The notes beneath the pieces were generated by a model, which was not told the origin of the DNA, ran no database searches, and was given only the letters and a program-made list of their open reading frames with translations. The translations under genes and the position numbers were made by a program. Below, one piece after another: positions 14,449 to 56,248 of a stretch of 64,000 nucleotides of DNA. The number at the start of each line of letters is the position of its first letter. Within the stretch, counting starts at the first letter, position 1. Source of the DNA: Terriglobia bacterium (GTDB lineage Bacteria; Acidobacteriota; Terriglobia; Terriglobales; Acidobacteriaceae). The stretch spans positions 12,544-76,543 of the forward strand of contig CAWJAA010000045.1 of assembly GCA_963840615.1 (NCBI GenBank), in the 5' to 3' direction.

Positions 14449-14555
14449 AGAAAATCACATGGGGACAGCCGTCTCGGCTGTCCTCCAAGCGAAGCATGGT
14501 GAAACGGCGAACGCGCGCAAACCACGCATCCTGTGCCCGAGTGCACACGCTCGTA

Positions 14556-14590
14556 CCTTTCGCGTCCCTGAATGTCCTCGGTGGTTAAGG
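14556..14590 (-). repeat. copy of dispersed motif family B
   Basis: The reverse complement CCTTAACCACCGAGGACATTCAGGGACGCGAAAGG matches 40163-40197 at 28/35 positions. Intergenic, upstream of the permease gene. Confidence 0.55.
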
Positions 14591-14698
14591 CGTTTCCCCG
14601 CGCCTTCTGTGGGCAAAGGCTTTCGCTGCCCAAACCCGGAAACCAATTTTTTACATCTTCTCTCGCTTACCGTTCCCGTCCCTCTGTGTCAAACTAGT

Positions 14699-15961
14699 AT
14701 GGTTAGGGGATTCATGCGCGCGTTTGCCGACCTTCTCGCCCAGATCTTCCGCAATTTGTGGGCGCACAAAATGCGCTCTTTCCTGACCATGTTCGGCATT
14801 GCCTGGGGCGTGGGCTCGCTGCTTCTGTTGGTTGGACTGGGGGAAGGCTTCCGCGCTGGCAACAAGCGCAATCTCTCGCAGTTCGGCGAAAACATTATGT
14901 TCATTTTCCCCGGCCGCGCTCCCGCGGTGCAGGGCAACATGAGTTCCGCCCGTACCTATCGGCTCACCTACAAGGACTACGCTGACATTCAGACTGACGC
15001 CCCACACGTTCTCGCCGCGACCCCGGTTCTCACCAAGGACGACACCCACGCGGTCAGCGAATTTGCCACCGCCAATGGGCAAGTCACCGGAGCTCTGCCT
15101 CAGTATCGCGGCATCCGTTATCTTCCCCTTCGCGAAGGCCGCTGGCTCGATTGGCTCGACGAAGGCCAGGAACACCACGTGATCGTGCTCGGCGACGAGA
15201 TGCGCCGTAACCTCTTTCCCGGACGCCCCGCCGTCGGTGCCTTCATTTTGATGAACGGCATCCGCTTCCAGGTCGTCGGCACCCTTGATCGTGTCGGCCG
15301 TGGCGACGACAATTCCACCAACATGCGCTGCTATATCCCCTTCTCAGTCATGAGAGATTATTTCCCGCTTCCCGGCGAAGAGTCCCAGGACGCAATCTCC
15401 TTTATCAACTATCAGCCCCGTGTCGCCGAAGAACACTTGATCGCACAAGATGAGATCCGCAAGATTATCGCCCGCAATCATGGCTTTGATTTTCACGACA
15501 CCGACGCCTTCGAAGGTTGGGATACCGTTCAACAGGCGCAGATGATGAGCATGATCTTTGACGCCATGAATACTTTTCTCGGCACCGTGGGCATGGTCAC
15601 GCTCGCCCTGGGCGCCATCGGGGTCATCAATATCATGCTGGTCGCGGTCAGCGACCGCACCCGGGAAATCGGCCTGCGCAAAGCTCTCGGCGCCACCAAC
15701 CGCAGCATTCTGATGCAGTTCTTCCTCGAAGGAGTCCTGATCACCGTGCTCAGCGGATTAATCGGAATGGGATTTGCCGGCGGCCTCATGGCCTTTCTGG
15801 GACAGTTCCAGGGGCCCGGTGGTTTCGATCCCCCCAAACTGGTTCCCGCCACTGCCATCCTGGCCATTGCCAGTCTGGCATTCGCTGGCGTTGTCGCCGG
15901 ACTTTATCCCGCGCGCAAGGCCGCGATGCTGGAGCCGGTCGAAGCCCTGAGACAGGAGTAA
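14699..15961 (+). CDS. ABC transporter permease, MacB/FtsX family
   Basis: N-terminal TM helix (MRSFLTMFGIAWGVGSLLLLVGLGEG), a large periplasmic domain, and a C-terminal FtsX module (..VSDRTREIGLRKALGAT...) with 3 TM helices. Start taken at ATG 14699, not the track's 14459. Confidence 0.85.
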   Translation: MVRGFMRAFADLLAQIFRNLWAHKMRSFLTMFGIAWGVGSLLLLVGLGEGFRAGNKRNLSQFGENIMFIFPGRAPAVQGNMSSARTYRLTYKDYADIQTDAPHVLAATPVLTKDDTHAVSEFATANGQVTGALPQYRGIRYLPLREGRWLDWLDEGQEHHVIVLGDEMRRNLFPGRPAVGAFILMNGIRFQVVGTLDRVGRGDDNSTNMRCYIPFSVMRDYFPLPGEESQDAISFINYQPRVAEEHLIAQDEIRKIIARNHGFDFHDTDAFEGWDTVQQAQMMSMIFDAMNTFLGTVGMVTLALGAIGVINIMLVAVSDRTREIGLRKALGATNRSILMQFFLEGVLITVLSGLIGMGFAGGLMAFLGQFQGPGGFDPPKLVPATAILAIASLAFAGVVAGLYPARKAAMLEPVEALRQE

Positions 15962-15963
15962 GC

Positions 15964-17205
15964 GTGTTCAAGGACCTTTTACGCGAAGCCTACAGCGCCA
16001 TGCGCCACAACTGGCGCCGTACCATGCTCACCATGCTCGGCATGGCGTGGGGCATCGCCACCGTGGTCATGCTGCTGTCCTACGGCAATGGCTTCGGCCA
16101 GGCCTGTGCCAACATCTTCGCCAACTTCGGCACCAAGCTCATGATCCTGGCCCCGGGTCGCAGTTCCATGCAGGCCGGAGGACAGAAGGCCGGTGCGCCC
16201 ATCCGCTTTACCATCGATGACATCGCAACCCTGACCAACAATCTTCCCCAGATCACCCACATCACCCCGGAATGCGGCAAGCAGTGCAATATTCAGTACG
16301 ACACCCGCACTTATCCCATCTACGTCAGCGGAAATTATCCCAACGTCGAGTCTATTCGTGCCTTGGCAGTTGCCCAGGGACGCTTCTATAACGCCGAGGA
16401 CGAAATGCAACACGCCCGCGTCGCCGTCATCGGCTCTGACACCAAAGACAAGCTGTTCTCCGGACGCAACGCCCTCGGCGAACGCATCCGCATCGATGGC
16501 ATCAGCTTCGAAGTGGTCGGCATCCTCGCCCCCAAAATGCAGGCGGGCGACGATAACGTCAACCGCATCATCTACATCCCCTTCACCGCCGTCGGCGATC
16601 TCAAAGACACCCACTATCTCGATTCCATCTGGTTCAACTACGAAACCAACGAATACGCGCGGCTTGAGCAGTCCGTGCGCTACCTCTTGGCTCCGCTTCA
16701 CCAGTTCAATCCGGCCGACCGCCGCGCCCTGTTCGTCTTTAATTTGATGGACCAGGTCCACCAGTTCGAACTGATCACCCTCGGCCTGAAGATTCTTCTC
16801 GGGTTCATCGGCACCCTCACGCTCGGCATCGGCGGAGTCGGTCTCATGAACATCATGCTGGTTTCCGTCACCCAGCGCACCCGCGAAATCGGCCTGGAAA
16901 AATCTCTTGGTGCCCGCGCCCGCGACATCTTCCTGCAATTCCTTGCCGAAGCTCTGACCATCACCTTTCTGGGCGGCGCCCTGGGCGTCATCCTCGCCTA
17001 CACCGTGGCCCTCTCCGTGGGACGCCTCACCCTCTACAGCGCCATCGCCAAACACGCCGAAGCCGGAGACGTCCGCCTCGTCATTGATCCCACGACGCTG
17101 GTCGTCGCCACCATCATTCTCGCCATTGTCGGTCTCCTGAGCGGCATGATCCCCGCTCTTCGCGCCTCCCGCCTCGACCCCATCGAAGCCCTCCGCTACG
17201 AGTAG
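15964..17205 (+). CDS. ABC transporter permease, MacB/FtsX family (second paralogue)
   Basis: Same architecture as the upstream gene (..VTQRTREIGLEKSLGAR..). GTG start lies 2 nt after the upstream stop. No cognate ATPase is present in the window. Confidence 0.85.
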   Translation: MFKDLLREAYSAMRHNWRRTMLTMLGMAWGIATVVMLLSYGNGFGQACANIFANFGTKLMILAPGRSSMQAGGQKAGAPIRFTIDDIATLTNNLPQITHITPECGKQCNIQYDTRTYPIYVSGNYPNVESIRALAVAQGRFYNAEDEMQHARVAVIGSDTKDKLFSGRNALGERIRIDGISFEVVGILAPKMQAGDDNVNRIIYIPFTAVGDLKDTHYLDSIWFNYETNEYARLEQSVRYLLAPLHQFNPADRRALFVFNLMDQVHQFELITLGLKILLGFIGTLTLGIGGVGLMNIMLVSVTQRTREIGLEKSLGARARDIFLQFLAEALTITFLGGALGVILAYTVALSVGRLTLYSAIAKHAEAGDVRLVIDPTTLVVATIILAIVGLLSGMIPALRASRLDPIEALRYE

Positions 17206-17405
17206 CGTCTGTCTGGGGACCCTGCCCACCCAGCCAGGAGCGCGAACTCTTTTGAGTCAAAGCTGCTCCCCTCGTCAAGTACAAGCATCACAATGCCCGC
17301 GCCCGTTCCCCGATTCCTTGCTTCCCCCCGGTTTCTGTGGGTGTAGAATCAAATCGTAGCGACAGAGAGCTTCACGGGATCCGCTCCCCGTTTCCGAGGC
17401 GATGC

Positions 17406-18452
17406 ATGAATGTCCACATCGGCTACAAAGTTCACAAGACTCCCGACATCGAAAAAGAAATCAACCATCACCTCGAAAAGTTACGCAAGCGCCTGCAAGT
17501 CTTTCGCCCTGAACTGGTGCACTTGAAAGCGGCGATTGAGCAGAACTCTCCGCGTGAGGGCTTCATCGTTTCCTTGAACTTGCGCCTGCCCTCCGGACAA
17601 ATGGCCGTCCAGAACTCCGCTTCCACGGCCACCGCCGCGCTGAAGGCCGCCTTCGAAGACCTGCTCCAGCAGCTCAACAAGCACAAAGCGCAACTGCGCA
17701 ATACCCGCAAGTGGCCGCGCTGGCGCGGTGTCGAAAACGAGCGTCCCCAGCCCCAGGTTCCATTCGAAGACACCCTGGCCGCCGTCCGGCCTCCCACCGT
17801 CTCCCAGGATGACGTTCGCACCTACGTCAATGCCAATCTTGGCCGTCTCGAACGCTTTGTCGAACGGGAACTTGTTTACCGCGAAGCCACCGACCAGATC
17901 CCTGCCGATTCCATCTCAAAAGAAGAGGTGATCGACGAAGCGGTCGCGCGGGCGCTAGGCGACGCAGGCGAAAAGCCCGAGCGCCTCGCCCTCGAACCCT
18001 GGCTCTACCGCCTGGCTCTTCACGCCATCGGAGACCTCGCCGCCCGCGATCATGAAGAAATACCCTCGGTGCACCTGGAAGATTCCGTCCGCCGTCAGAA
18101 CGTTCGCGCCAGTGATGAACCCGTCCTGCAATTTCATCAACCGGATGAAACCCTCACCGAGGAAAGCATCATCCCAGACCGGGGCACGGCGACTCCGGAA
18201 GCCATCGCTGACAACGACGAAATGGTGAACCTCGTTCAGTTCGCGCTGCAAGGCCTCGACCGCACCGACCGCGAGGTTTTCCTCCTGCACGGCATCGAAG
18301 GCTTCACCGTCGAGGAAATCTCCGCCATCACCGATCGCAAGCCCGACCAGGTCAGGGCCTCCATCTCTGTCGCCCGCGACCATCTTCGCCACTTCGCTCC
18401 CATCGCCAACCGGTTCAAGGAAAAACTACTTCAGGGGTCCGCCACCGACTAA
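17406..18452 (+). CDS. fusion protein: HPF/RaiA (S30AE) ribosome-hibernation domain plus ECF-type sigma-70 regions 2 and 4
   Basis: Residues 1-100 (MNVHIGYKVHKTPDIEKEINHHLEKL...VSLNLRLPSGQMAVQNSASTATAALKAAFEDLLQQLNKHKAQLRN) follow the HPF/YfiA pattern. The C-terminal half has sigma region 2 (EEVIDEAVARAL..PWLYRLALHAIGDLAAR) and region 4 (LDRTDREVFLLHGIEGFTVEEISAITDRKPDQVRASISVARDHLR). Confidence 0.7.
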   Translation: MNVHIGYKVHKTPDIEKEINHHLEKLRKRLQVFRPELVHLKAAIEQNSPREGFIVSLNLRLPSGQMAVQNSASTATAALKAAFEDLLQQLNKHKAQLRNTRKWPRWRGVENERPQPQVPFEDTLAAVRPPTVSQDDVRTYVNANLGRLERFVERELVYREATDQIPADSISKEEVIDEAVARALGDAGEKPERLALEPWLYRLALHAIGDLAARDHEEIPSVHLEDSVRRQNVRASDEPVLQFHQPDETLTEESIIPDRGTATPEAIADNDEMVNLVQFALQGLDRTDREVFLLHGIEGFTVEEISAITDRKPDQVRASISVARDHLRHFAPIANRFKEKLLQGSATD

Positions 18453-18478
18453 CCAAATACCGCACACAGGAGCATTCG

Positions 18479-19663
18479 ATGATTACCCGCGAAGACATCC
18501 GTGAGCTGGCGCAATTCCAGTTTGATGCCAAAGACAAGGAAGCTTGTGCCCTGAGTTTTTACTTTCAGCCTCGTCCGCCCCAGAACAAGTCCCACCGCGA
18601 AGAGGCCATTCTCGCCAAAGACCTGGTGCGCAATGCCATGCGCGAGGCCGAAAAAAGCGGTAAGAACGGATGTGCCCGCGCCGACCTGCTGCGTATGCTC
18701 AGCGTGGCCGAGACGCTTCACGGTCACCAGACCCACGCCAAAGCCATCTTCGCCTGCGGTGCCCACAATTTCTGGCGCGAGTTCGACCTCCCTCCCGAAC
18801 TCCCCGGAAGCCAGCTCGTCGTCAACCGCCGTTTCCATCTCAAGCCCCTCGCCCTTTTGCTCGGAGCCCAGCGCCGCGTCGGCGTCGCCCTGGTCAACCG
18901 CCAACGCGCCCGGCTCTTCGATCTTCGCTTGGATGAACTGAAGGAAAGGGAGGGCATGTATCATGCCGTCCCGCGCCGCACTCGCAGCGATGGCTACGCC
19001 GGATACAATGCCGGACACCACGAGCGCCACGTAGCCGGAGAAGCTTTACACCACTTCAAAGATGTCGCCGCCCGCCTGAAAGACGAGGCCGAAAAAGGCG
19101 CCTGGGAAAAACTGATCATCGGATGCCAGGATAACCACTGGCCTGAGTTCGAGCCCCAACTTCATCCCTACGTGGTGCAACGCCTGCTCGGACACTTCTC
19201 CATCGACGTCACTACCGCTACCAATGACGAAATCCACCAGCACGCGTCCCGTATCCTGCTCACAAACCGCGATAACCGGCGCAAGAGTCTGATCCGCGAG
19301 GCTCTCAATCAGGCCAAGAGTAATAACCGTGGCGTCACCGGACTACGCCGCGTCCTGCGCTCCCTCGAACTGGGGGAAGTCCAGACCCTGCTGATGGGCG
19401 AGAGCTACTCTGCCCACGCCGTCGAATGCGCCAACTGCGGACATCTCGACGCCCACATCGTGCGCCTTTGCCCGGTCTGCGGACACGACACCCGCGAACT
19501 GGAAAATGTCTGCGACGCCATCATCGCCGCTGCCATCCGCCTCGACATCGAACTGTTTTACGTCAAAGACGACCCGGAGTTCGACAGCGCGGGCAACATC
19601 GCCGCACTCCTCCGCTTCCGTGCCGACCAGACCCGAGGTGCCGGCATCGCCGTAGCCTCCTGA
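18479..19663 (+). CDS. eRF1/Pelota-superfamily protein (bacterial aeRF1-like, baeRF-type) with a Zn-ribbon insert
   Basis: Three-domain pattern: middle-domain start RRVGVALVNRQRARLF, C-domain GVTGLRRVLRSLELGEVQTLLM, terminal ..GNIAALLRF as in eRF1/Pelota. CANCGH..x10..CPVCGH forms a 4-Cys ribbon. No GGQ motif. Confidence 0.65.
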   Translation: MITREDIRELAQFQFDAKDKEACALSFYFQPRPPQNKSHREEAILAKDLVRNAMREAEKSGKNGCARADLLRMLSVAETLHGHQTHAKAIFACGAHNFWREFDLPPELPGSQLVVNRRFHLKPLALLLGAQRRVGVALVNRQRARLFDLRLDELKEREGMYHAVPRRTRSDGYAGYNAGHHERHVAGEALHHFKDVAARLKDEAEKGAWEKLIIGCQDNHWPEFEPQLHPYVVQRLLGHFSIDVTTATNDEIHQHASRILLTNRDNRRKSLIREALNQAKSNNRGVTGLRRVLRSLELGEVQTLLMGESYSAHAVECANCGHLDAHIVRLCPVCGHDTRELENVCDAIIAAAIRLDIELFYVKDDPEFDSAGNIAALLRFRADQTRGAGIAVAS

Positions 19664-19788
19664 ATCTTCTTTGGGAAGGGAAGTGTTGGGATTCCAAGTG
19701 GGGATTAGAAATGCCGGGTTAAGAATGTGGGGGGACGGGCGACCCGCCCCCAACCAACAGCCCAGACATTCCTGTTTGTGCGCCCGCC

Positions 19789-20268
19789 CTACTTCTTCGC
19801 CTTCGCCGGATCATCCTCTGCATTCACGTAATTGATTACGAACGGACCCATTCCGTGCAATTGCAGCACCGTCTCTCCTCGGGCCTTGGCAAAATGCCGC
19901 ATCTCCTTCGGCATTTGTACATACGATCCCGGAGGCAATTCCCCGAGCGCCGCCTCATCGTACTTCTCTCCCATCCCAGCCAGAAACGTCCCCCGCAGCA
20001 CCGTCACGTTCTCGTCTTCCGGATGCCAGTGCGGAGGAATTCTGGTTCCATCCGATAGCCGCAAACGTATCGTATACATTCCTGTTTTGCCGGGATCCCC
20101 CGCCAACACCGTCAGCTCGACTCCTGGCATGAACGGTTCCCACTTGAGCGTCCCCGGCTTTACAATCGTAGGTCCCGAGCCAGTTTGTGCACTCCCCGCC
20201 ACACTAGCCGCAAACCACACCAGAAGAACCACTGCCCATCTGTTCATTCCATCCTCCTTGCACCGCAT
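19789..20268 (-). CDS. secreted cupin-domain protein
   Basis: Signal peptide (MNRWAVVLLVWFAASVAGSAQ) and cupin metal motif (PPHWHPEDENVTVLRG...PKEMRHF). Start is 20268 or 20247. Confidence 0.75.
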   Translation of the reverse strand: MRCKEDGMNRWAVVLLVWFAASVAGSAQTGSGPTIVKPGTLKWEPFMPGVELTVLAGDPGKTGMYTIRLRLSDGTRIPPHWHPEDENVTVLRGTFLAGMGEKYDEAALGELPPGSYVQMPKEMRHFAKARGETVLQLHGMGPFVINYVNAEDDPAKAKK

Positions 20269-23323: not shown

Positions 23324-23407
23324 GCCGAAAGGTTATCAAAATCCACGCACCCCCACCGTAGTTCTGAAGAGGCGCACCTCAGCTGCGCCTAAGCCGCGCA
23401 AAAAGTA

Positions 23408-23812
23408 GGCCTCCCGCAAGGGAGGCCACATGACTGCTGACAAACGCCTCCCACCCCGATGACGTCATCCCGAGCGACGCGAGGGATCTGGCGTGGACCA
23501 TCGAGACCCTTGCCACTGCGCCAGATCCTTCGCCCTGGCGGGCTCAGGATGACTTCATCCGAGCATGATGCGGATAGACGAGGGTTTGTCAACAATCTGA
23601 GGCCTCCCGCAAGGGAGGCCACAGACTGCTGACAAACGCCTCCCACCCCGATGACGTCATCCCGAGCGACGCGAGGGATCTGGCGTGGACCATCGAGACC
23701 CTTGCCACTGCGCCAGATCCTTCGCCCTGGCGGGCTCAGGATGACTTCATCCGAGGATGATGCGGATAGACGAGGGTTTGTCAACAATCTGAGGCCTCCC
23801 GCAAGGGAGGCC
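23408..23812. repeat. tandem array (2 full units of 193/192 bp plus a third capping hairpin) of a palindromic intergenic element
   Basis: The perfect hairpin GGCCTCCC-GCAA-GGGAGGCC occurs at 23408, 23601 and 23793. The two intervening units are near-identical, and each is a long imperfect inverted repeat (..GTCATCCCGAGCGACGCGAGGGATCTGGCG / CGCCAGATCCTTCGCC..GCTCAGGATGAC..). Confidence 0.9.
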
Positions 23813-23858
23813 AAATGCTTTCACCAACGACCAATGACCAACGACGAATGTCCAACGA

Positions 23859-27519: not shown

Positions 27520-29100
27520 TTGGCCTACGACGATCTACGCGACTGGATTGCCGCCCTCGAGCGCGCTGGTGAACTCAAGAAAATCCGCACGGAAGTTGAT
27601 CCCCATCTCGAAATCGCCGAGATCACGGACCGCGTCAGCAAGTCTCAGGCGGGGACAGCGGCCTCGGCGGTCCGGCCCGGTGGACCGGCTCTCCTGTTCC
27701 AGAACATCAAGGGCCATGCCGGTTCGCAGGTCCTGATCAACCAGTTCGGGTCCGCCCGGCGCATGAACATGGCGCTCGAGGTCGACAACCTCGACCAAGT
27801 GGCCGACCGCATCCGCGCTTTCATGGACGTGAAATCTCCCCAGGGCTTTCTCGACAAAGTCAAAATGCTTCCCATGCTGGCGGAAATGGGCAAGTTCTTT
27901 CCTAAGACGGTCTCCTCTGGCCCCTGCAAGGAAGTCATCCAGCGCGACAATTTCTCTCTCCTGGACTTTCCCATTCTGCAGTGCTGGCCGCAGGACGCCG
28001 GACGCTTCATCACCCTCCCGTGCGTCGTCACCCGCGATCCCAAGACCGGCAAGCGCAACGTCGGCATGTACCGTATGCAGGTGTATGACGAAAAAACTAC
28101 CGGCATGCACTGGCAACGCCAGAAAGTGGGGGCGGAGCATTACCGCGAAGCCCTGCGCGCCGTCGCTTCCACCGAACACGCGGGAAGCCCAGCAGCGGCG
28201 GCCGTCGACATCATGGCTCGCACTTCCGGAGGATCGGTCCTGGCCGACAACGAACGCCCCTCCGGCCGCATGGAAGTCGCCGTCGCCATCGGCACCGACC
28301 CGGCGCTGACTTTTTCCGCTATCGTGCCCGCGCCCCCTGACATCGAGGAATATCTGATTGCCGGGTTCCTTCGGCAGAAGCCGGTCGAACTGGTCAAGTG
28401 CGAAACCGTCGATCTCGAGGTTCCCGCCAACGCCGAGATCGTTCTGGAAGGCCACGTCCATCTCGACGAACTTCGCACCGAGGGACCGTTCGGCGATCAC
28501 ACCGGCTTTTATTCCCTGGAAGATCTTTATCCGGTTTTTCACGTGTCCTGCATCACCCATCGCAAAGATCCCATCTACTCGACCACCATCGTGGGCAAGC
28601 CCCCCATGGAAGACGGATGGATGGGCAAAGCGGTCGAGCGCATCTTCCTGCCGCTGATGAGGCTGACCATTCCAGAACTGGTCGACATCAACCTGCCGCT
28701 GGAAGGTGTCTTTCACAACCTGATGATGGTTTCCATCAGGAAGTCCTATCCCGGACAAGCGCGCAAGGTGATGAACGCCATCTGGTCGCTCGGCCAGGCC
28801 ATGTTCACCAAGTGCGTCATCGTGGTCGATGAAGACGTGAACGTGCAGGACGCTGGTGAAGTTGTGCTCAAAGTTCTTAACCACATTGATCCCGAGCGCG
28901 ACATCCAGTTCACGCTCGGTCCGGTCGACTCGCTCGACCACGCCTCGCGCCTGCCCAATTACGGATCGAAGATGGGCATCGACGCCACCCGCAAATGGGC
29001 GAGCGAAGGCTTCACCCGTCCCTGGCCCGATGAGATTCTCATGGACGCCAAGACCAAGGCAGCCGTCGATAAGAAGTGGAAGGAACTGGGAATCGATTGA
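27520..29100 (+). CDS. UbiD-family (prenyl-FMN dependent) decarboxylase, probably the menaquinone/futalosine-branch enzyme
   Basis: YDDLRDWIAALERAGELKKI N-terminus, then ..GRFITLPCVVTRDPKTGKRNVGMYRMQV.. and ..EGPFGDHTGFYS.. blocks, all typical of UbiD. Start tentatively TTG 27520, after GGAGGA; the track ORF begins at 27310. Confidence 0.8.
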   Translation: MAYDDLRDWIAALERAGELKKIRTEVDPHLEIAEITDRVSKSQAGTAASAVRPGGPALLFQNIKGHAGSQVLINQFGSARRMNMALEVDNLDQVADRIRAFMDVKSPQGFLDKVKMLPMLAEMGKFFPKTVSSGPCKEVIQRDNFSLLDFPILQCWPQDAGRFITLPCVVTRDPKTGKRNVGMYRMQVYDEKTTGMHWQRQKVGAEHYREALRAVASTEHAGSPAAAAVDIMARTSGGSVLADNERPSGRMEVAVAIGTDPALTFSAIVPAPPDIEEYLIAGFLRQKPVELVKCETVDLEVPANAEIVLEGHVHLDELRTEGPFGDHTGFYSLEDLYPVFHVSCITHRKDPIYSTTIVGKPPMEDGWMGKAVERIFLPLMRLTIPELVDINLPLEGVFHNLMMVSIRKSYPGQARKVMNAIWSLGQAMFTKCVIVVDEDVNVQDAGEVVLKVLNHIDPERDIQFTLGPVDSLDHASRLPNYGSKMGIDATRKWASEGFTRPWPDEILMDAKTKAAVDKKWKELGID

Positions 29101-29170
29101 CGATTGTCGATTTTTGATTGTTGATTGAAGATCCTGACTGCCTCCAGCACGATTACTGGTCTCTAAATAC

Positions 29171-29204
29171 AAAAGGCGCTGGCCGGTGGCCAACGCCTTT
29201 TGTG
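29171..29204 (+). terminator. rho-independent terminator after the UbiD-family gene
   Basis: AAAAGGCGCTGGC / GCCAACGCCTTTT stem (12 of 13 positions paired) with a short loop, followed by TTTTGTG. Confidence 0.7.
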
Positions 29205-29207
29205 ACT

Positions 29208-29224
29208 CTATACTTTCAGTATAG
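29208..29224. promoter_or_regulatory. AT-rich perfect inverted repeat CTATACT-TTC-AGTATAG, candidate operator or -10-like element
   Basis: A 7-bp perfect palindrome in a 548-bp intergenic region of a GC-rich genome. Function unknown. Confidence 0.25.
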
Positions 29225-29648
29225 CAAATTGCTTAGGGGGAGTCGGACAAATTAGCAAAAAGATATTCGGGTTGGAATCAGTGTCTTGCGGGGAAACGAG
29301 GGATTTAGGGGGCTTGACAAGAAAAGCCGACGGCGGACCGAAGACCCAGGCGGGTGGCCGAGAATTGCCTTTGTGGGACCCATCCGCCACCGCACCCCTG
29401 CGACAGGCGTCTCCAGGGCACACCCTGGCAGCCCTTGGCTCTCAGCATCTGAGGAGGGACAAGCGGCTGACAATCCCACTTAGTCATCCACAATGCCTCA
29501 TCGGCGTGCCCTGCCTTCCTAAATCTGACAAACAATTTACAACTAGCGCTTGTAGTAGAGGCGGGGGCAACATAAGATCGCGCGCACGTTCCGGCTCCAT
29601 GACCCGGGATGGATGGCTACTCACCCTGAAATGTCTTAAGGAGACAAC

Positions 29649-30725
29649 ATGAAGCAACGGTTGGTTTTTCTCGCGGCGCTGGTCTGTCTGGCCAGTTTAG
29701 CCTTTTCCCAGGATGCGACCAAAGCGAAGGGACGCTTCGTCGCCATGAAGCCTCACGCGTATTTCACCGATGCCCGGCCTCCGGCCGGACAACTGGCGCA
29801 GTGGAATGGCTCATGGATTCACAAGAATGTCCGCTATCCCTTCGTGATGGTGGGGGCGGATCCGCGCAAGAGCAACACGGCGACCACGGTCCCGGTGTAC
29901 CTCATTCCGGTCAAAATGGTGTACGGGTCGAGCAACGGCAACATGACGTTTGATCCCACGCTGAGCACGAATTTTAACGGCATGAGTGCGCAGACGGTGC
30001 TGACCACGTCACCGCTGTTTGCTTCGAACGTGGACTTCGTGCAGGGTGGAACCGACCTGGGCACGACTCAGTACATTGATGCTTACCAGCGCGGCAACTT
30101 CTGGAAGGTGGTCAAGAAAAACACCGGCTACCACGTGCTGCTGGGCACGCCCACGATTCTGGCGACACAGACGATTAACGTGACCGCATCGCAGGGTTCG
30201 GTGATCACCAATCCGTTTCTGGCCGGGCACAAAGTGGGTACGATGGACATCAACGCCTTCGATGTGGCGCTGCAAGGCTTCCTGCACAATTTCCCGCAGA
30301 TCACGCCTGACAGTTTGCCCATCTTCATCAACTACGACGTGTATCTGACTTCGGGCGGATGCTGCATTGGCGGCTATCACAGCGCCAACGGTTCACAGCC
30401 GGCGGGCCAGACGTACGCTTACACCACCCTGGTGGATCAGGGTTCGGGCGTGTTCTCGCAGGACACGGCCGCAGCGGCGCACGAAATCGGCGAGTGGCTG
30501 GATGATCCCTTCGTCGACAACTCGGTCCCGTGCCTGGATAACAGCATCCTCGAGAATGGCGATCCACTGGTGCTCGACGATCATGCCTACACCGTGGGCT
30601 CGTTCACCTATCACCTGCAGGACCTGGTGTTCATCGATTACTTTGGCGCGGGGACTGCGATTCCAGTCAACAGCTGGTTGAGTTTCCAGAACGACGAGAA
30701 GAATACCTGCCCGGGATTACCGTAA
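29649..30725 (+). CDS. secreted hypothetical protein with an HEIGE motif
   Basis: Signal peptide MKQRLVFLAALVCLASLAFSQ and GGAG RBS at 29640. Conserved-looking GGCCIGGYHSA and AAHEIGEWLDDPF segments. I recognise no family. Confidence 0.6.
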   Translation: MKQRLVFLAALVCLASLAFSQDATKAKGRFVAMKPHAYFTDARPPAGQLAQWNGSWIHKNVRYPFVMVGADPRKSNTATTVPVYLIPVKMVYGSSNGNMTFDPTLSTNFNGMSAQTVLTTSPLFASNVDFVQGGTDLGTTQYIDAYQRGNFWKVVKKNTGYHVLLGTPTILATQTINVTASQGSVITNPFLAGHKVGTMDINAFDVALQGFLHNFPQITPDSLPIFINYDVYLTSGGCCIGGYHSANGSQPAGQTYAYTTLVDQGSGVFSQDTAAAAHEIGEWLDDPFVDNSVPCLDNSILENGDPLVLDDHAYTVGSFTYHLQDLVFIDYFGAGTAIPVNSWLSFQNDEKNTCPGLP

Positions 30726-30745
30726 TCTGCCTGGGCGTCTGGGAG

Positions 30746-30778
30746 GGCCCGCTTCCCGGAAGGAGGCGGGCTTTTTTT
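30746..30778 (+). terminator. rho-independent terminator
   Basis: GGCCCGCTTCC / GGAGGCGGGC stem with a short loop, followed by T7. Confidence 0.75.
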
Positions 30779-30883
30779 GTTTGGGGAACTCCCTCTGATC
30801 CGGTCATCGTCAGCAGATAGGATGGCGATAGCGAACTCCGCGGGTGCATTTGGGGCTATAATTTTGCGACGGAGACAGTTTCT

Positions 30884-31228
30884 ATGCGACTCATTCAGGT
30901 AATTTCCGTCGCGCTTCTGGGTTTGGCTTCGGCCAGTGGGGCCTGGGCTGCCGATCCGCGGCCAGCCGAGAACCCGGGGTTGAACGCGGGCGGCGATTCC
31001 AGGGCAATCCTGCCGCTAACCACGACCATGACTGAATGGAACCCATTGTCGGGCAAGGACGATGACCGAGTTTGCTACCGTATGCGCACCTACCGCATTC
31101 GCAAAGATTTGGATCGCGAGAGCGTCATCCGGGTGCGTCCCGATGATGCCACTTTCGATCCGGACAACGTCATCGGGTATTCGACTTGCCAGCGGGCCGG
31201 GAAGTATGGAGTAAGGAGTACTGAGTAG
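30884..31228 (+). CDS. small secreted hypothetical protein
   Basis: 114 aa with signal peptide MRLIQVISVALLGLASASGAWA. A weak hairpin plus T6 follows at 31248-31269. Confidence 0.5.
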   Translation: MRLIQVISVALLGLASASGAWAADPRPAENPGLNAGGDSRAILPLTTTMTEWNPLSGKDDDRVCYRMRTYRIRKDLDRESVIRVRPDDATFDPDNVIGYSTCQRAGKYGVRSTE

Positions 31229-52981: not shown

Positions 52982-54019
52982 ATGAGGCTTTCATGGATGA
53001 AAGCAACGCTGGGGATTTTTCTGAGCATGGTTTTCTCGGTGTCACTGTGGGGTGACACCCACGGCGCAAATGCCGCGCTTCCGGGGACGCTTAACTATGT
53101 GGAGGGGCAGGCCTCGATCGGGGCGGAAACACTGAACTCGAAGTCGATCGGTTCGGCGGAACTGCAGAAGGGGCAGACGCTGAGCACGGATGATGGGAAG
53201 GCTGAGATCCTGCTGACGCCGGGCGTGTTTTTGCGGCTTGATGCCCATAGTTCGGTTGCCATGGTCTCTCCTAACTTGACCGATACGCAGGTCGAGATCC
53301 GGCAGGGGCGGGCGATGATCGAGGTTGCGCAACTTTACAAAGAGAACGACATACGGATTCTCGAAAACAGCACAATCACCCAGCTGGAGAAACCCGGCCT
53401 GTACGATTTTGACGCTGGGCAGAATCAGATTCGCGTGTTTGATGGCAAGGCGCTGGTGCGCGACGGGGATCGCACAGTGACCCTGAAGGGCGGACGCGAA
53501 GTGTCGCTGGATTCAGGAACTGCCTTCAAGGCCAGCAAGTTCGGGAAGAAGACGTATGAGGCCAGCGATCTGTATCGCTTCAGCAGCTTGCGGTCTTCGT
53601 ATCTGGCGGAAGCCAATGTGGATCAGGCGAGCGCATACGTCGCCGGGTTTGGCTATGGTCCGGGGTGGTACGGCGCGGGCTGGTATTGGGATCCATGGTT
53701 TAGTGCGTATACGTTCATTCCCGGAGATGGGATCTTCTACAGCCCGTTTGGTTATGGCTTCTATTCCCCGCTCTGGGCCTACCAGGCTCCCTATTACTGG
53801 GGCGGAGGCTACTACGGGAATGGGAATTATGGTTCCAGATACGGACATCCGATTGCGCGTCCGGGGTACGCGGGATACGGGCATACAGCCGTCATGCGGG
53901 GAGGGATCGGCGGCTTCCATGGCGGCTCCATGGGTGGCTTTCATGGGGGATCGATGGGTGGGTTCCATGGAGGTTCCACGGGTGGTTTCCACGGCGGCAG
54001 TGTCGGAGGCCGACGGTAG
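52982..54019 (+). CDS. FecR-domain protein with an aromatic/glycine-rich tail ending in GGFHGGSx repeats
   Basis: Signal/anchor segment, then a FecR-like beta domain (..GKAEILLTPGVFLRLDAHSSV...IRVFDGKALV..). The C-terminal 130 aa are rich in G/Y/W/F and end in four 8-aa repeats. Confidence 0.65.
   Translation: MRLSWMKATLGIFLSMVFSVSLWGDTHGANAALPGTLNYVEGQASIGAETLNSKSIGSAELQKGQTLSTDDGKAEILLTPGVFLRLDAHSSVAMVSPNLTDTQVEIRQGRAMIEVAQLYKENDIRILENSTITQLEKPGLYDFDAGQNQIRVFDGKALVRDGDRTVTLKGGREVSLDSGTAFKASKFGKKTYEASDLYRFSSLRSSYLAEANVDQASAYVAGFGYGPGWYGAGWYWDPWFSAYTFIPGDGIFYSPFGYGFYSPLWAYQAPYYWGGGYYGNGNYGSRYGHPIARPGYAGYGHTAVMRGGIGGFHGGSMGGFHGGSMGGFHGGSTGGFHGGSVGGRR
53909..54010 (+). repeat. four tandem 24-bp coding repeats (GGFHGGS[M/T/V])
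   Basis: The units at 53909, 53933, 53957 and 53981 differ mostly at synonymous positions while the peptide repeat is conserved. Confidence 0.85.
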
Positions 54020-56158: not shown

Positions 56159-56248
56159 TGGCGGAGAGGGTGGGATTTGAACCCACGATACCCGTTAAGG
56201 TATGTCCGCTTTCGAGGCGGATCGTTTCAACCGCTCACGCACCTCTCC
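56159..56248 (-). tRNA. tRNA-Ser (anticodon CGA), CCA encoded
   Basis: The reverse complement GGAGAGGTGCGTGAGCGGTTGAAACGATCCGCCTCGAAAGCGGACATACC..GGGTTCAAATCCCACCCTCTCCGCCA folds with a 7-bp acceptor stem, U8, a 3-bp D stem, anticodon loop CU-CGA-AA, a long variable arm, a TPsiC arm and discriminator G. Confidence 0.9.

Follow-up and report, generated by a model that had tools for sequence, protein, structure and literature searches.

The stretch analysed here (the window) comprises 64,000 nucleotides of a Terriglobia bacterium of the Acidobacteriota (contig CAWJAA010000045.1 of assembly GCA_963840615.1), and our subject is a pair of genes that lie on the same strand of it, 26 nt apart. The upstream gene, open reading frame 1 (ORF1), joins an N-terminal domain of the HPF/RaiA (S30AE) type to a diverged module related to the sigma factor RpoE. 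The downstream gene, ORF2, encodes an aeRF1-like protein of the Balon family of ribosome-hibernation factors. We propose that the pair probably constitutes a bicistronic ribosome-hibernation operon, conserved in soil Acidobacteria, in which the sigma-like tail of ORF1 serves to contact another protein instead of directing transcription from specific promoters. The coding features, by position in the window, are as follows (aa, amino acids; AF2, AlphaFold2; pLDDT, predicted local distance difference test).

17406-18452, + strand: ORF1, 348 aa; ATG at 17406, stop codon at 18450-18452
17406-17705, + strand: HPF/RaiA (S30AE) domain, ORF1 aa 1-100; supported by Pfam, hhalign, AF2 and Foldseek
17706-17801, + strand: basic linker (RKWPRWR...), ORF1 aa 101-132; AF2 pLDDT <50, more variable than the domains
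17802-18044, + strand: diverged sigma2-like domain, ORF1 aa 133-213; equivalents of regions 2.1-2.4, with WLYRLA, by hhalign
18045-18215, + strand: acidic linker between sigma2 and sigma4, ORF1 aa 214-270; predicted disordered, AF2 pLDDT <50, net charge -9
18216-18392, + strand: sigma4 (region 4.2 helix-turn-helix), ORF1 aa 271-329; Pfam PF08281, confident in the AF2 model
18453-18478, + strand: intergenic spacer of 26 nt; AGGAG at 18468-18472, 6 nt 5' of the ORF2 ATG
18479-19663, + strand: ORF2, 394 aa; ATG at 18479, stop codon at 19661-19663; Balon-family (baeRF_family10) aeRF1-like protein
19427-19480, + strand: zinc-ribbon insertion CxxC...CxxC in the C-domain of ORF2, aa 317-334 (C317xxC320...C331xxC334)

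A GTG at 17337 was considered as the start of ORF1 and rejected: nearly all homologues begin at MNVH, and both the conserved -10-like element described below and the Shine-Dalgarno sequence sit 3' of this GTG. A single homologue (P0004) has a longer N-terminus, which has no counterpart in the others.

Sequence and structure comparisons agree on the N-terminal domain of ORF1. The Pfam model Ribosomal_S30AE (PF02482) matches aa 8-98 at 34.7 bits (cut-off 23.7), and a profile of the family aligns with E. coli HPF at 95.8% probability over its whole length (hhalign, residues 1-94), including the QL-KHK-L motif. The AF2 model has the β-α-β-β-β-α fold of HPF over aa 1-101 with pLDDT of 80-90 (strands at 2-7, 39-48, 52-61 and 64-72; helices at 13-32 and 75-101). 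Foldseek superimposes the domain on solved HPF, YfiA and RaiA structures with template-modelling (TM) scores, TMt, of 0.7-0.85 (4hei, 2rql, 8rd8_D and 4y4o); 8rd8_D is the RaiA chain of the Psychrobacter ribosome that also carries Balon. The domain is a divergent member of its family, as ORF1 scores 25.4 bits against the cut-off of 40.9 for the HPF/YfiA equivalog TIGR00741. In its N-terminal fold and its QL-KHK-L helix motif, ORF1 resembles both short HPF/YfiA and the long HPF of Gram-positive bacteria and Thermus. Unlike long HPF, it carries a sigma-like extension of ~250 aa in place of the C-terminal dimerization domain that in long HPF gives rise to 100S particles, and no such dimerization domain was found in ORF1 with Pfam at E<=1. 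No second S30AE-like sequence was found within the 64-kb window.

ORF2 belongs to the family of the hibernation factor Balon. It matches the Pfam model baeRF_family10 (PF18854) at 82.6 bits (cut-off 27.1), as does the verified Balon Msmeg1130 (E 4.5e-36, with a sequence rebuilt from a PDB alignment). A phmmer search of the PDB returns Msmeg1130 (8v9j_z) as its top match, at E 1.7e-5 over aa 23-379. The AF2 model (pLDDT 77) has three domains, and the best Foldseek matches are again ribosome-bound Msmeg1130 (8v9j_z and 8v9l_z; E 3e-22, TM 0.72-0.78), with Balon of P. urativorans (8rdv, 8rdw and 8rd8) at TM 0.65-0.70. Identity to Msmeg1130 is about 18%. Both GGQ and NIKS are absent from the 394-aa sequence. 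The four cysteines of the C-domain insertion are invariant in 48 homologues and align with a part of the Msmeg1130 C-domain that contains no Cys and is presumably the β-hairpin with which Balon binds EF-Tu; the archaeal release factor aRF1 (4af1) has a CxxC at the place aligned to the ribbon. In addition, F119-H-L-K-P123-L of ORF2 aligns to F-I-H-P-L of Msmeg1130, with F119, L121 and P123 invariant and H120 and K122 present in >=90% of homologues.

Much of this accords with a first-pass annotation of the same DNA, which had placed two same-strand reading frames at these positions with a 26-nt gap, recognized an S30AE/HPF fold at the start of ORF1, and described ORF2 as a three-domain eRF1-like protein that lacks GGQ and carries CxxC..CxxC in its C-domain. 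The profile searches that it recommended gave matches above cut-off for S30AE, Sigma70_r4_2 and baeRF_family10, and left Sigma70_r2 unmatched. Its view of ORF2 as an uncharacterized 'stalled-ribosome factor' has to be replaced, given that the Pfam and PDB matches place the protein in the Balon hibernation-factor family (PMC10901736).

The fusion and its partner are conserved together. Among species-representative genomes, 600 candidate stretches were collected, at least 580 of which encode a relative of the fusion, and the locus counts given here refer to the best 80 of them (L001-L080), all metagenome-assembled genomes (MAGs) of Terriglobia/Acidobacteriota. A Balon-like gene follows the fusion directly on the same strand at 78 of these 80 loci, in line with the adjacency that the earlier annotation had proposed to survey, with 21-94 nt between the two genes at the 77 loci whose matches both begin at residue 1. 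The exceptions are L077, where the Balon gene has been lost and an asparaginase gene comes directly after the fusion, and L069, which also has no Balon gene. Orthologues of the fusion form >100 clusters of 341-353 aa with a common architecture. In a library clustered at 50% identity the fusion accounts for 426 clusters at E<=1e-10, and full-length relatives occur at identities as low as 25%. At two of the 78 loci, L068 and L070, tblastn matches are split between frames in more than one gene (Balon and asparaginase at either locus, and at L070 radical SAM as well), which suggests assembly frameshifts.

The remainder of ORF1 is a sigma-like module whose two domains differ in how easily they are recognized. 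Sigma70_r4_2 (PF08281) matches aa 277-327 at 34.1 bits (cut-off 25.7). Sigma70_r2 (PF04542), by contrast, gives no match to ORF1 even at E<=1, and among 41 diverse full-length members of the family it matches one (E<=0.01), compared with 37 each for S30AE and sigma4. The homology of the sigma2-like domain to regions 2.1-2.4 of RpoE is visible only by profile-profile comparison: a profile of the same 41 members aligns with E. coli RpoE residues 45-185, which span regions 2.1-2.4 and sigma4, at 97.6% probability (hhalign; segments of the RpoE sequence used agree with PDB alignments). The general model TIGR02937 (sigma70-ECF, for extracytoplasmic function) covers aa 150-329 at 41.3 bits, 1.6 below its cut-off of 42.9. 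A profile search of the PDB with ORF1 returns sigmaE (1or7_A) at E 1.2e-7, and Foldseek aligns ~200 ORF1 columns with the sigmaH and sigmaE chains of holoenzyme structures. The 'complete-looking ECF sigma factor' of the first-pass annotation thus stands for sigma4 and fails for sigma2, and the linker of ~80 aa that it had placed between the HPF and sigma parts shrinks to ~30 aa (aa 101-132) if sigma2 is taken to begin with the helix at 134-163.

Conservation is unevenly distributed over this module. Orthologues show strong conservation of the sigma2-like domain (mean column entropy 0.68); highly conserved are the region-2.2-like helix and WLYRLA, which differs from the region-2.3 sequence WLYRIA of RpoE by a single Leu-for-Ile substitution. 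The region-2.2 motif DxxQE is conserved in the sigma-70 family and contacts core RNA polymerase. ORF1 reads E174-V-I-D177-E178 at the aligned positions, and Asp takes the place of the Gln in 36 of the 41 diverse members and 114 of 119 orthologues. The sigma2-sigma4 linker (~55 aa), though predicted to be disordered, is nearly invariant in orthologues and carries the family motif LQFHQPDExLTxE, the core of which, [FY]xQPD[ED], is kept in relatives at 25-30% identity and in the plasmid-borne homologue orf11 discussed below. Within sigma4, the scaffold residues (REvF.L, EGF, EI, ITDR and AR.HLR) are nearly invariant in the 119 orthologues, which are 65-100% identical; across the same set, the most variable positions of the domain are R317, A318, S321 and V322. 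These align to R171, S172, F175 and R176 of sigmaE, which we take, in the light of the sigmaE/-35 structure, to be the DNA-contacting residues of the -35 recognition helix. The module derives from an RpoE-like sigma factor and appears to have kept constrained protein surfaces but not the hallmarks of DNA reading. The tail of ORF1 is best called a diverged sigma-like module, since it falls short of a clear ECF sigma factor.

Upstream of the operon, comparison of 81 upstream regions brought out a conserved promoter-like element, and a structured leader precedes the start codon of ORF1. These non-coding features are listed here together with the gene that faces ORF2.

17340-17349, + strand: conserved promoter-like element GGTGTAGAAT, with the -10-like TAGAAT at 17344-17349
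17374-17391, + strand: hairpin in the 5' untranslated region with an ACGGG/CCCGT stem, just upstream of the Shine-Dalgarno GAGG
17396-17399, + strand: Shine-Dalgarno GAGG of ORF1, after the leader hairpin
19789-20268, - strand: Cupin_7 (ChrR cupin-like) gene, convergent to ORF2, with a signal-peptide-like N-terminus

The element GGTGTAGAAT emerged only through the comparison; simple scans of 17000-20000 for sigma-70 promoters and intrinsic terminators found nothing, including any terminator-like site in the ORF1-ORF2 spacer. Of the 81 regions, 79 contain GGTGTA and 71 contain TAGAAT, at a fixed spacing of 63-71 nt from the ATG. A convincing -35 could not be identified upstream of TAGAAT in these regions; a conserved ATTT(GC) block was considered for this role and rejected, since its distance from TAGAAT, ~23 nt in the upstream direction, exceeds a standard spacer. 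The element is not of the GGAAC...CGT type recognized by ECF factors. A minority of loci, the window not among them, do have GGAAC in their leader (as GGAACCGGAA in 23 of the 81). Judged by its sequence, the putative promoter does not look like that of an autoregulated ECF factor.

The leader hairpin occupies the same position in 57 distinct leaders of orthologous loci (L001-L080), and its stems differ by compensatory changes (CACGGAA/TTCCGTG, ACGGGT/ACCCGT, AGGGGA/TCCCCT and CGAGA/TCTCG, among others). The leaders have a mean minimum free energy of -8.8 kcal/mol, compared with -5.3 (sd 2.7) for shuffles. Folding of the individual sequences showed the hairpin; RNAalifold, applied to the leaders as aligned by MAFFT, recovered a consensus of just 3 pairs because the 3' arm was misaligned. 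At Rfam gathering thresholds, neither the raiA motif nor any other known RNA was found at the leader, and the only match in the window is an 87-nt tRNA at 56162-56248 on the - strand.

The genes around the operon are metabolic, and neither in the window nor at the 80 related loci does an anti-sigma gene lie nearby. The convergent Cupin_7 gene was examined as a possible anti-sigma factor and rejected, since it has a signal-peptide-like N-terminus, lacks an anti-sigma domain and occurs in only 5 of the 80 loci. Upstream, an MqnC/CofH-like radical-SAM gene is found at 67 of the 80 loci, and an asparaginase gene lies downstream at 57. A pair of MacB/FtsX-type ABC permease genes (window 14459-17205) separates the radical-SAM gene from the fusion in the window and otherwise only in L001, L002, L003 and L005, which are its four closest relatives; elsewhere among the loci checked, no more than ~150-1,000 nt lie between the end of the radical-SAM gene and the fusion. 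The region between ORF2 and the cupin gene folds no better than shuffles (z 0.32), and for this reason we claim no terminator there.

Some further observations concern other parts of the window. A 192-bp tandem duplication (23407-23817; 2.1 copies with 98% identity), flanked by a carboxymuconolactone-decarboxylase-like ORF on one side and a glpX-like ORF on the other, gives rise to an ORF with an internally repeated peptide. At ~29000-31000, the GC skew changes sign from negative on the left to positive on the right; a search for origin genes at this point recognized no DnaA-like gene, and the large ORFs beside it, 27535-29193 (-) and 29649-30725 (+), have no Pfam match. An imperfect tandem repeat of 24/48 bp occupies 53892-53998.

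Distant relatives of the fusion place it in other contexts. In other Acidobacteriota it stands alone or next to BON and grpE-dnaJ-merR-clpB genes, without Balon. For example, two contigs (L084:3349-9134 and L085) carry a distant paralogue between a BON-domain gene and a grpE-dnaJ-merR(hspR-like)-clpB cluster; in both, a conserved 36-aa ORF overlaps the stop codon of the paralogue. A few distant paralogues do match Sigma70_r2. On proteobacterial plasmids the fusion lies inside heat-resistance islands, in the order ftsH, clpK-like, fusion, hdeD and then yfdX. The copies on Brucella and Sphingobium plasmids (between them, L081:4956-6098 and L082:4938-6110) are just upstream of hdeD, the Brucella copy being located between a clpK-like AAA ATPase gene and hdeD. 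In Klebsiella pneumoniae pKPN-262 (L088:4575-5720), the homologue is orf11 of the transmissible stress-tolerance locus (tLST, also known as the heat-resistance locus, LHR), located between hdeD-GI and trx-GI. Pfam finds neither domain in orf11 itself, yet hhalign aligns it with the family profile full-length at 99.8% probability (332 columns, 21% identity), including an FYQPD motif. The tLST literature lists orf11 as a protein of unknown function. Like ORF1, this proteobacterial protein is a full-length member of the family; its gene belongs to a stress island. It differs from ORF1 in its neighbours, which are hdeD and trx in Klebsiella or clpK-like and hdeD in Brucella where ORF1 has Balon, and in being plasmid-borne and horizontally spread, whereas the Terriglobia locus is syntenic and chromosomal.

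Several described systems resemble the operon in part. Cryo-electron microscopy places Balon in the A site of hibernating ribosomes of P. urativorans together with RaiA and EF-Tu-GDP, and mycobacterial homologues of Balon inhibit translation (PMC10901736). The same study found that Balon genes adjoin raiA/hpf most frequently and that alternative sigma-70 factors are also among their neighbours (Nature 2024, PMC10901736). The pairing of Balon with RaiA in Psychrobacter urativorans and in mycobacteria (Msmeg1130, Rv2629) is matched here by an aeRF1-like gene free of GGQ and NIKS beside an HPF/RaiA gene. Unlike Msmeg1130, ORF2 has a four-Cys zinc ribbon, and, unlike RaiA, the HPF partner carries a sigma-like tail. 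A November 2025 preprint (10.1101/2025.11.04.686544) describes HPF proteins in which Csp, SigE or CBS domains replace the dimerization domain, with a copy on plasmid pEc78 among the SigE-like chimeras, and reports that chimeric HPF-SigE often adjoins Balon. ORF1 is like these chimeras in having an RpoE-like module instead of the dimerization domain and in lying outside the canonical hpf operon and beside Balon. Because the preprint reports both the HPF-sigma fusion and its Balon-type partner, the pairing is already described, and the earlier statement that no such combination was known is outdated. The preprint's treatment is computational and at the family level, and the text consulted does not mention the Terriglobales subfamily, the zinc-ribbon Balon with which it is paired almost without exception, or the degeneracy of sigma2 and the recognition helix. 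What is new here is a distinct Acidobacteriota lineage with a zinc-ribbon Balon. Our literature search found no experimental work on the sigma-like part, and N-terminal extensions related to ribosomes or HPF do not appear in the paper on ECF classification (PMC7826278).

We propose the following model for the operon. Upon starvation or stress, both products would bind one ribosome. In the manner of HPF and RaiA, the N-terminal domain of ORF1 would sit in the 30S decoding channel. ORF2, a Balon-type aeRF1 homologue that lacks catalytic motifs, would fill the A site and the peptidyl-transferase side, with EF-Tu-GDP probably held by its zinc-ribbon hairpin. Together, the two proteins would silence and protect the ribosome. 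The RpoE-like module, which replaces the dimerization domain of long HPF, would most likely serve as a protein-interaction module, with core RNA polymerase as the obvious candidate partner. We favour an interaction module over a promoter-specific sigma factor because the region-2.2-like helix and the QPDE linker are constrained, whereas the presumed DNA-reading positions are not. The company kept by the relatives, which are found in tLST/LHR heat-resistance islands and grpE-dnaJ-clpB operons, is consistent with a role in hibernation. The label 'translation-stress module' given to the locus by the first-pass annotation fits in this general sense, through the domain assignments and the conserved adjacency; a part of it that does not hold is the sigma factor, which is diverged and not a clear ECF factor.

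A more specific version of the model, which we regard as speculative and would not expect to be correct in full, is that the tail still engages core RNA polymerase, by way of its acidic QPDE linker and its conserved region-2.2-like helix, and has lost promoter reading. It might then couple hibernating ribosomes to RNA polymerase, either by co-hibernation or sequestration or by competition with sigma factors. Alternatively, the ribosome might itself act as an 'anti-sigma' that gates an active sigma factor. The same could apply to orf11, whose tLST/LHR islands are clinically relevant.

Other explanations of the sigma-like module assign it a function in transcription. It is conceivable, although in our judgement unlikely, that ORF1 is a genuine ECF-type sigma factor, as the first reading of the locus had it: docking of the HPF domain on idle ribosomes would sequester or release the sigma factor and so reprogramme transcription, with Balon as a co-expressed effector. 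Such a factor would have both of its expected folds in ORF1, each homologous to RpoE. The near miss of TIGR02937, the conserved WLYRLA within a strongly constrained sigma2-like domain, and the few distant paralogues recognized by Sigma70_r2 point in the same direction. It would also have to be reconciled with the absence of Sigma70_r2 from 40 of the 41 diverse members, with a family-wide change of the region-2.2 Gln to Asp, with -35 recognition-helix positions that vary among orthologues as close as 65-85% identical, with an upstream element that is conserved and not ECF-like, and with the lack of an anti-sigma neighbour. This last group of features (ExxDE included), together with the long conserved acidic linker, separates ORF1 from RpoE, despite the sigma2-sigma4 layout that it shares with both RpoE and the sigma-like domain of PhyR. 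The likeness to PhyR raises the further idea of a ribosome-gated partner switch, in which the module mimics a sigma factor, binds an anti-sigma factor when the state of the HPF domain changes, and frees a true sigma factor. The loss of canonical sigma2 features and of conservation at DNA-reading positions would suit a mimic, the Pfam model PhyR_sigma-like matches 29 of the 41 members (best E 2e-10), and the profile search of the PDB also matches the PhyR-like structures 9by5 and 9cb6. We nonetheless attach very little weight to this idea: ORF1 has no receiver domain, unlike PhyR, and scores 21.3 bits against the cut-off of 27 for PF22233; its matches to sigmaE are stronger than those to PhyR; and no conserved NepR-like gene is located nearby.

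Two more alternatives concern ORF2 and the integrity of ORF1. That ORF2 is an aeRF1- or Pelota-like release or rescue factor acting on stalled ribosomes would agree with its three-domain aeRF1 fold and with profile matches to aRF1 and Pelota, but we consider it very unlikely. The motif for peptidyl-tRNA hydrolysis, GGQ, is missing, as is NIKS; the structural similarity to Balon (TM 0.72-0.78) is far better than that to aRF1/eRF1 (TM <=0.51) or Pelota (TM <=0.40); the release-factor model TIGR03676 gives 37.9 bits against a cut-off of 234.7; and the protein shares the Pfam family of a verified Balon and an operon with an HPF domain. An assembly or indel error could in principle have joined separate hpf and sigma genes, a concern that the first-pass annotation had raised and to which the frameshifted genes in the related long-read MAG loci L068 and L070 lend some substance. 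Conservation already refutes it. The fusion recurs across hundreds of sequence clusters, with one architecture in the >100 orthologue clusters from independent sources, it extends to full-length relatives at 25% identity, and full-length relatives are also encoded on complete isolate plasmids.

Several considerations weigh against our own proposal. Both sigma domains are under strong purifying selection and clearly homologous to RpoE, and a working sigma factor therefore keeps some of its appeal; the variability at the recognition-helix positions may be no more than surface noise. Since the distant paralogues and the tLST copies have no Balon neighbour, the fusion does not depend on Balon. The binding of ORF1 and ORF2 to the ribosome, and hence their joint occupancy of it, is something that we infer. 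As for ORF2 itself, its scores fall far below the cut-offs of the three NCBIfam equivalogs named 'ribosome hibernation factor' (MSMEG_1130, 50.1 versus 480; Rv2629, 37.7 versus 320; AOC03_06830, 36.3 versus 330), and it therefore represents a distinct lineage within the Balon superfamily. Nor is the 'HP motif', with which the N-domain of Balon touches the decoding centre, clearly present or conserved in ORF2: H120-L-K-P123 stands opposite I-H-P of Msmeg1130, and the position of the motif is itself uncertain, the Balon paper giving no residue numbers for it (PMC10901736).

If the hibernation operon is the correct explanation, the known hibernation systems of the Balon/HPF kind would gain a large lineage of Acidobacteriota that is inherited vertically. 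More broadly, the locus ties this lineage to orf11 of the islands that confer resistance to heat and chlorine on Klebsiella, E. coli and others. Much then depends on the job that the sigma-factor-derived domain performs on a ribosome-hibernation factor, in ORF1 as in tLST orf11. A mere scaffold role would make the fusion an ordinary variant of these systems, whereas a direct link between the ribosome and RNA polymerase during dormancy, if true, would be of general interest.

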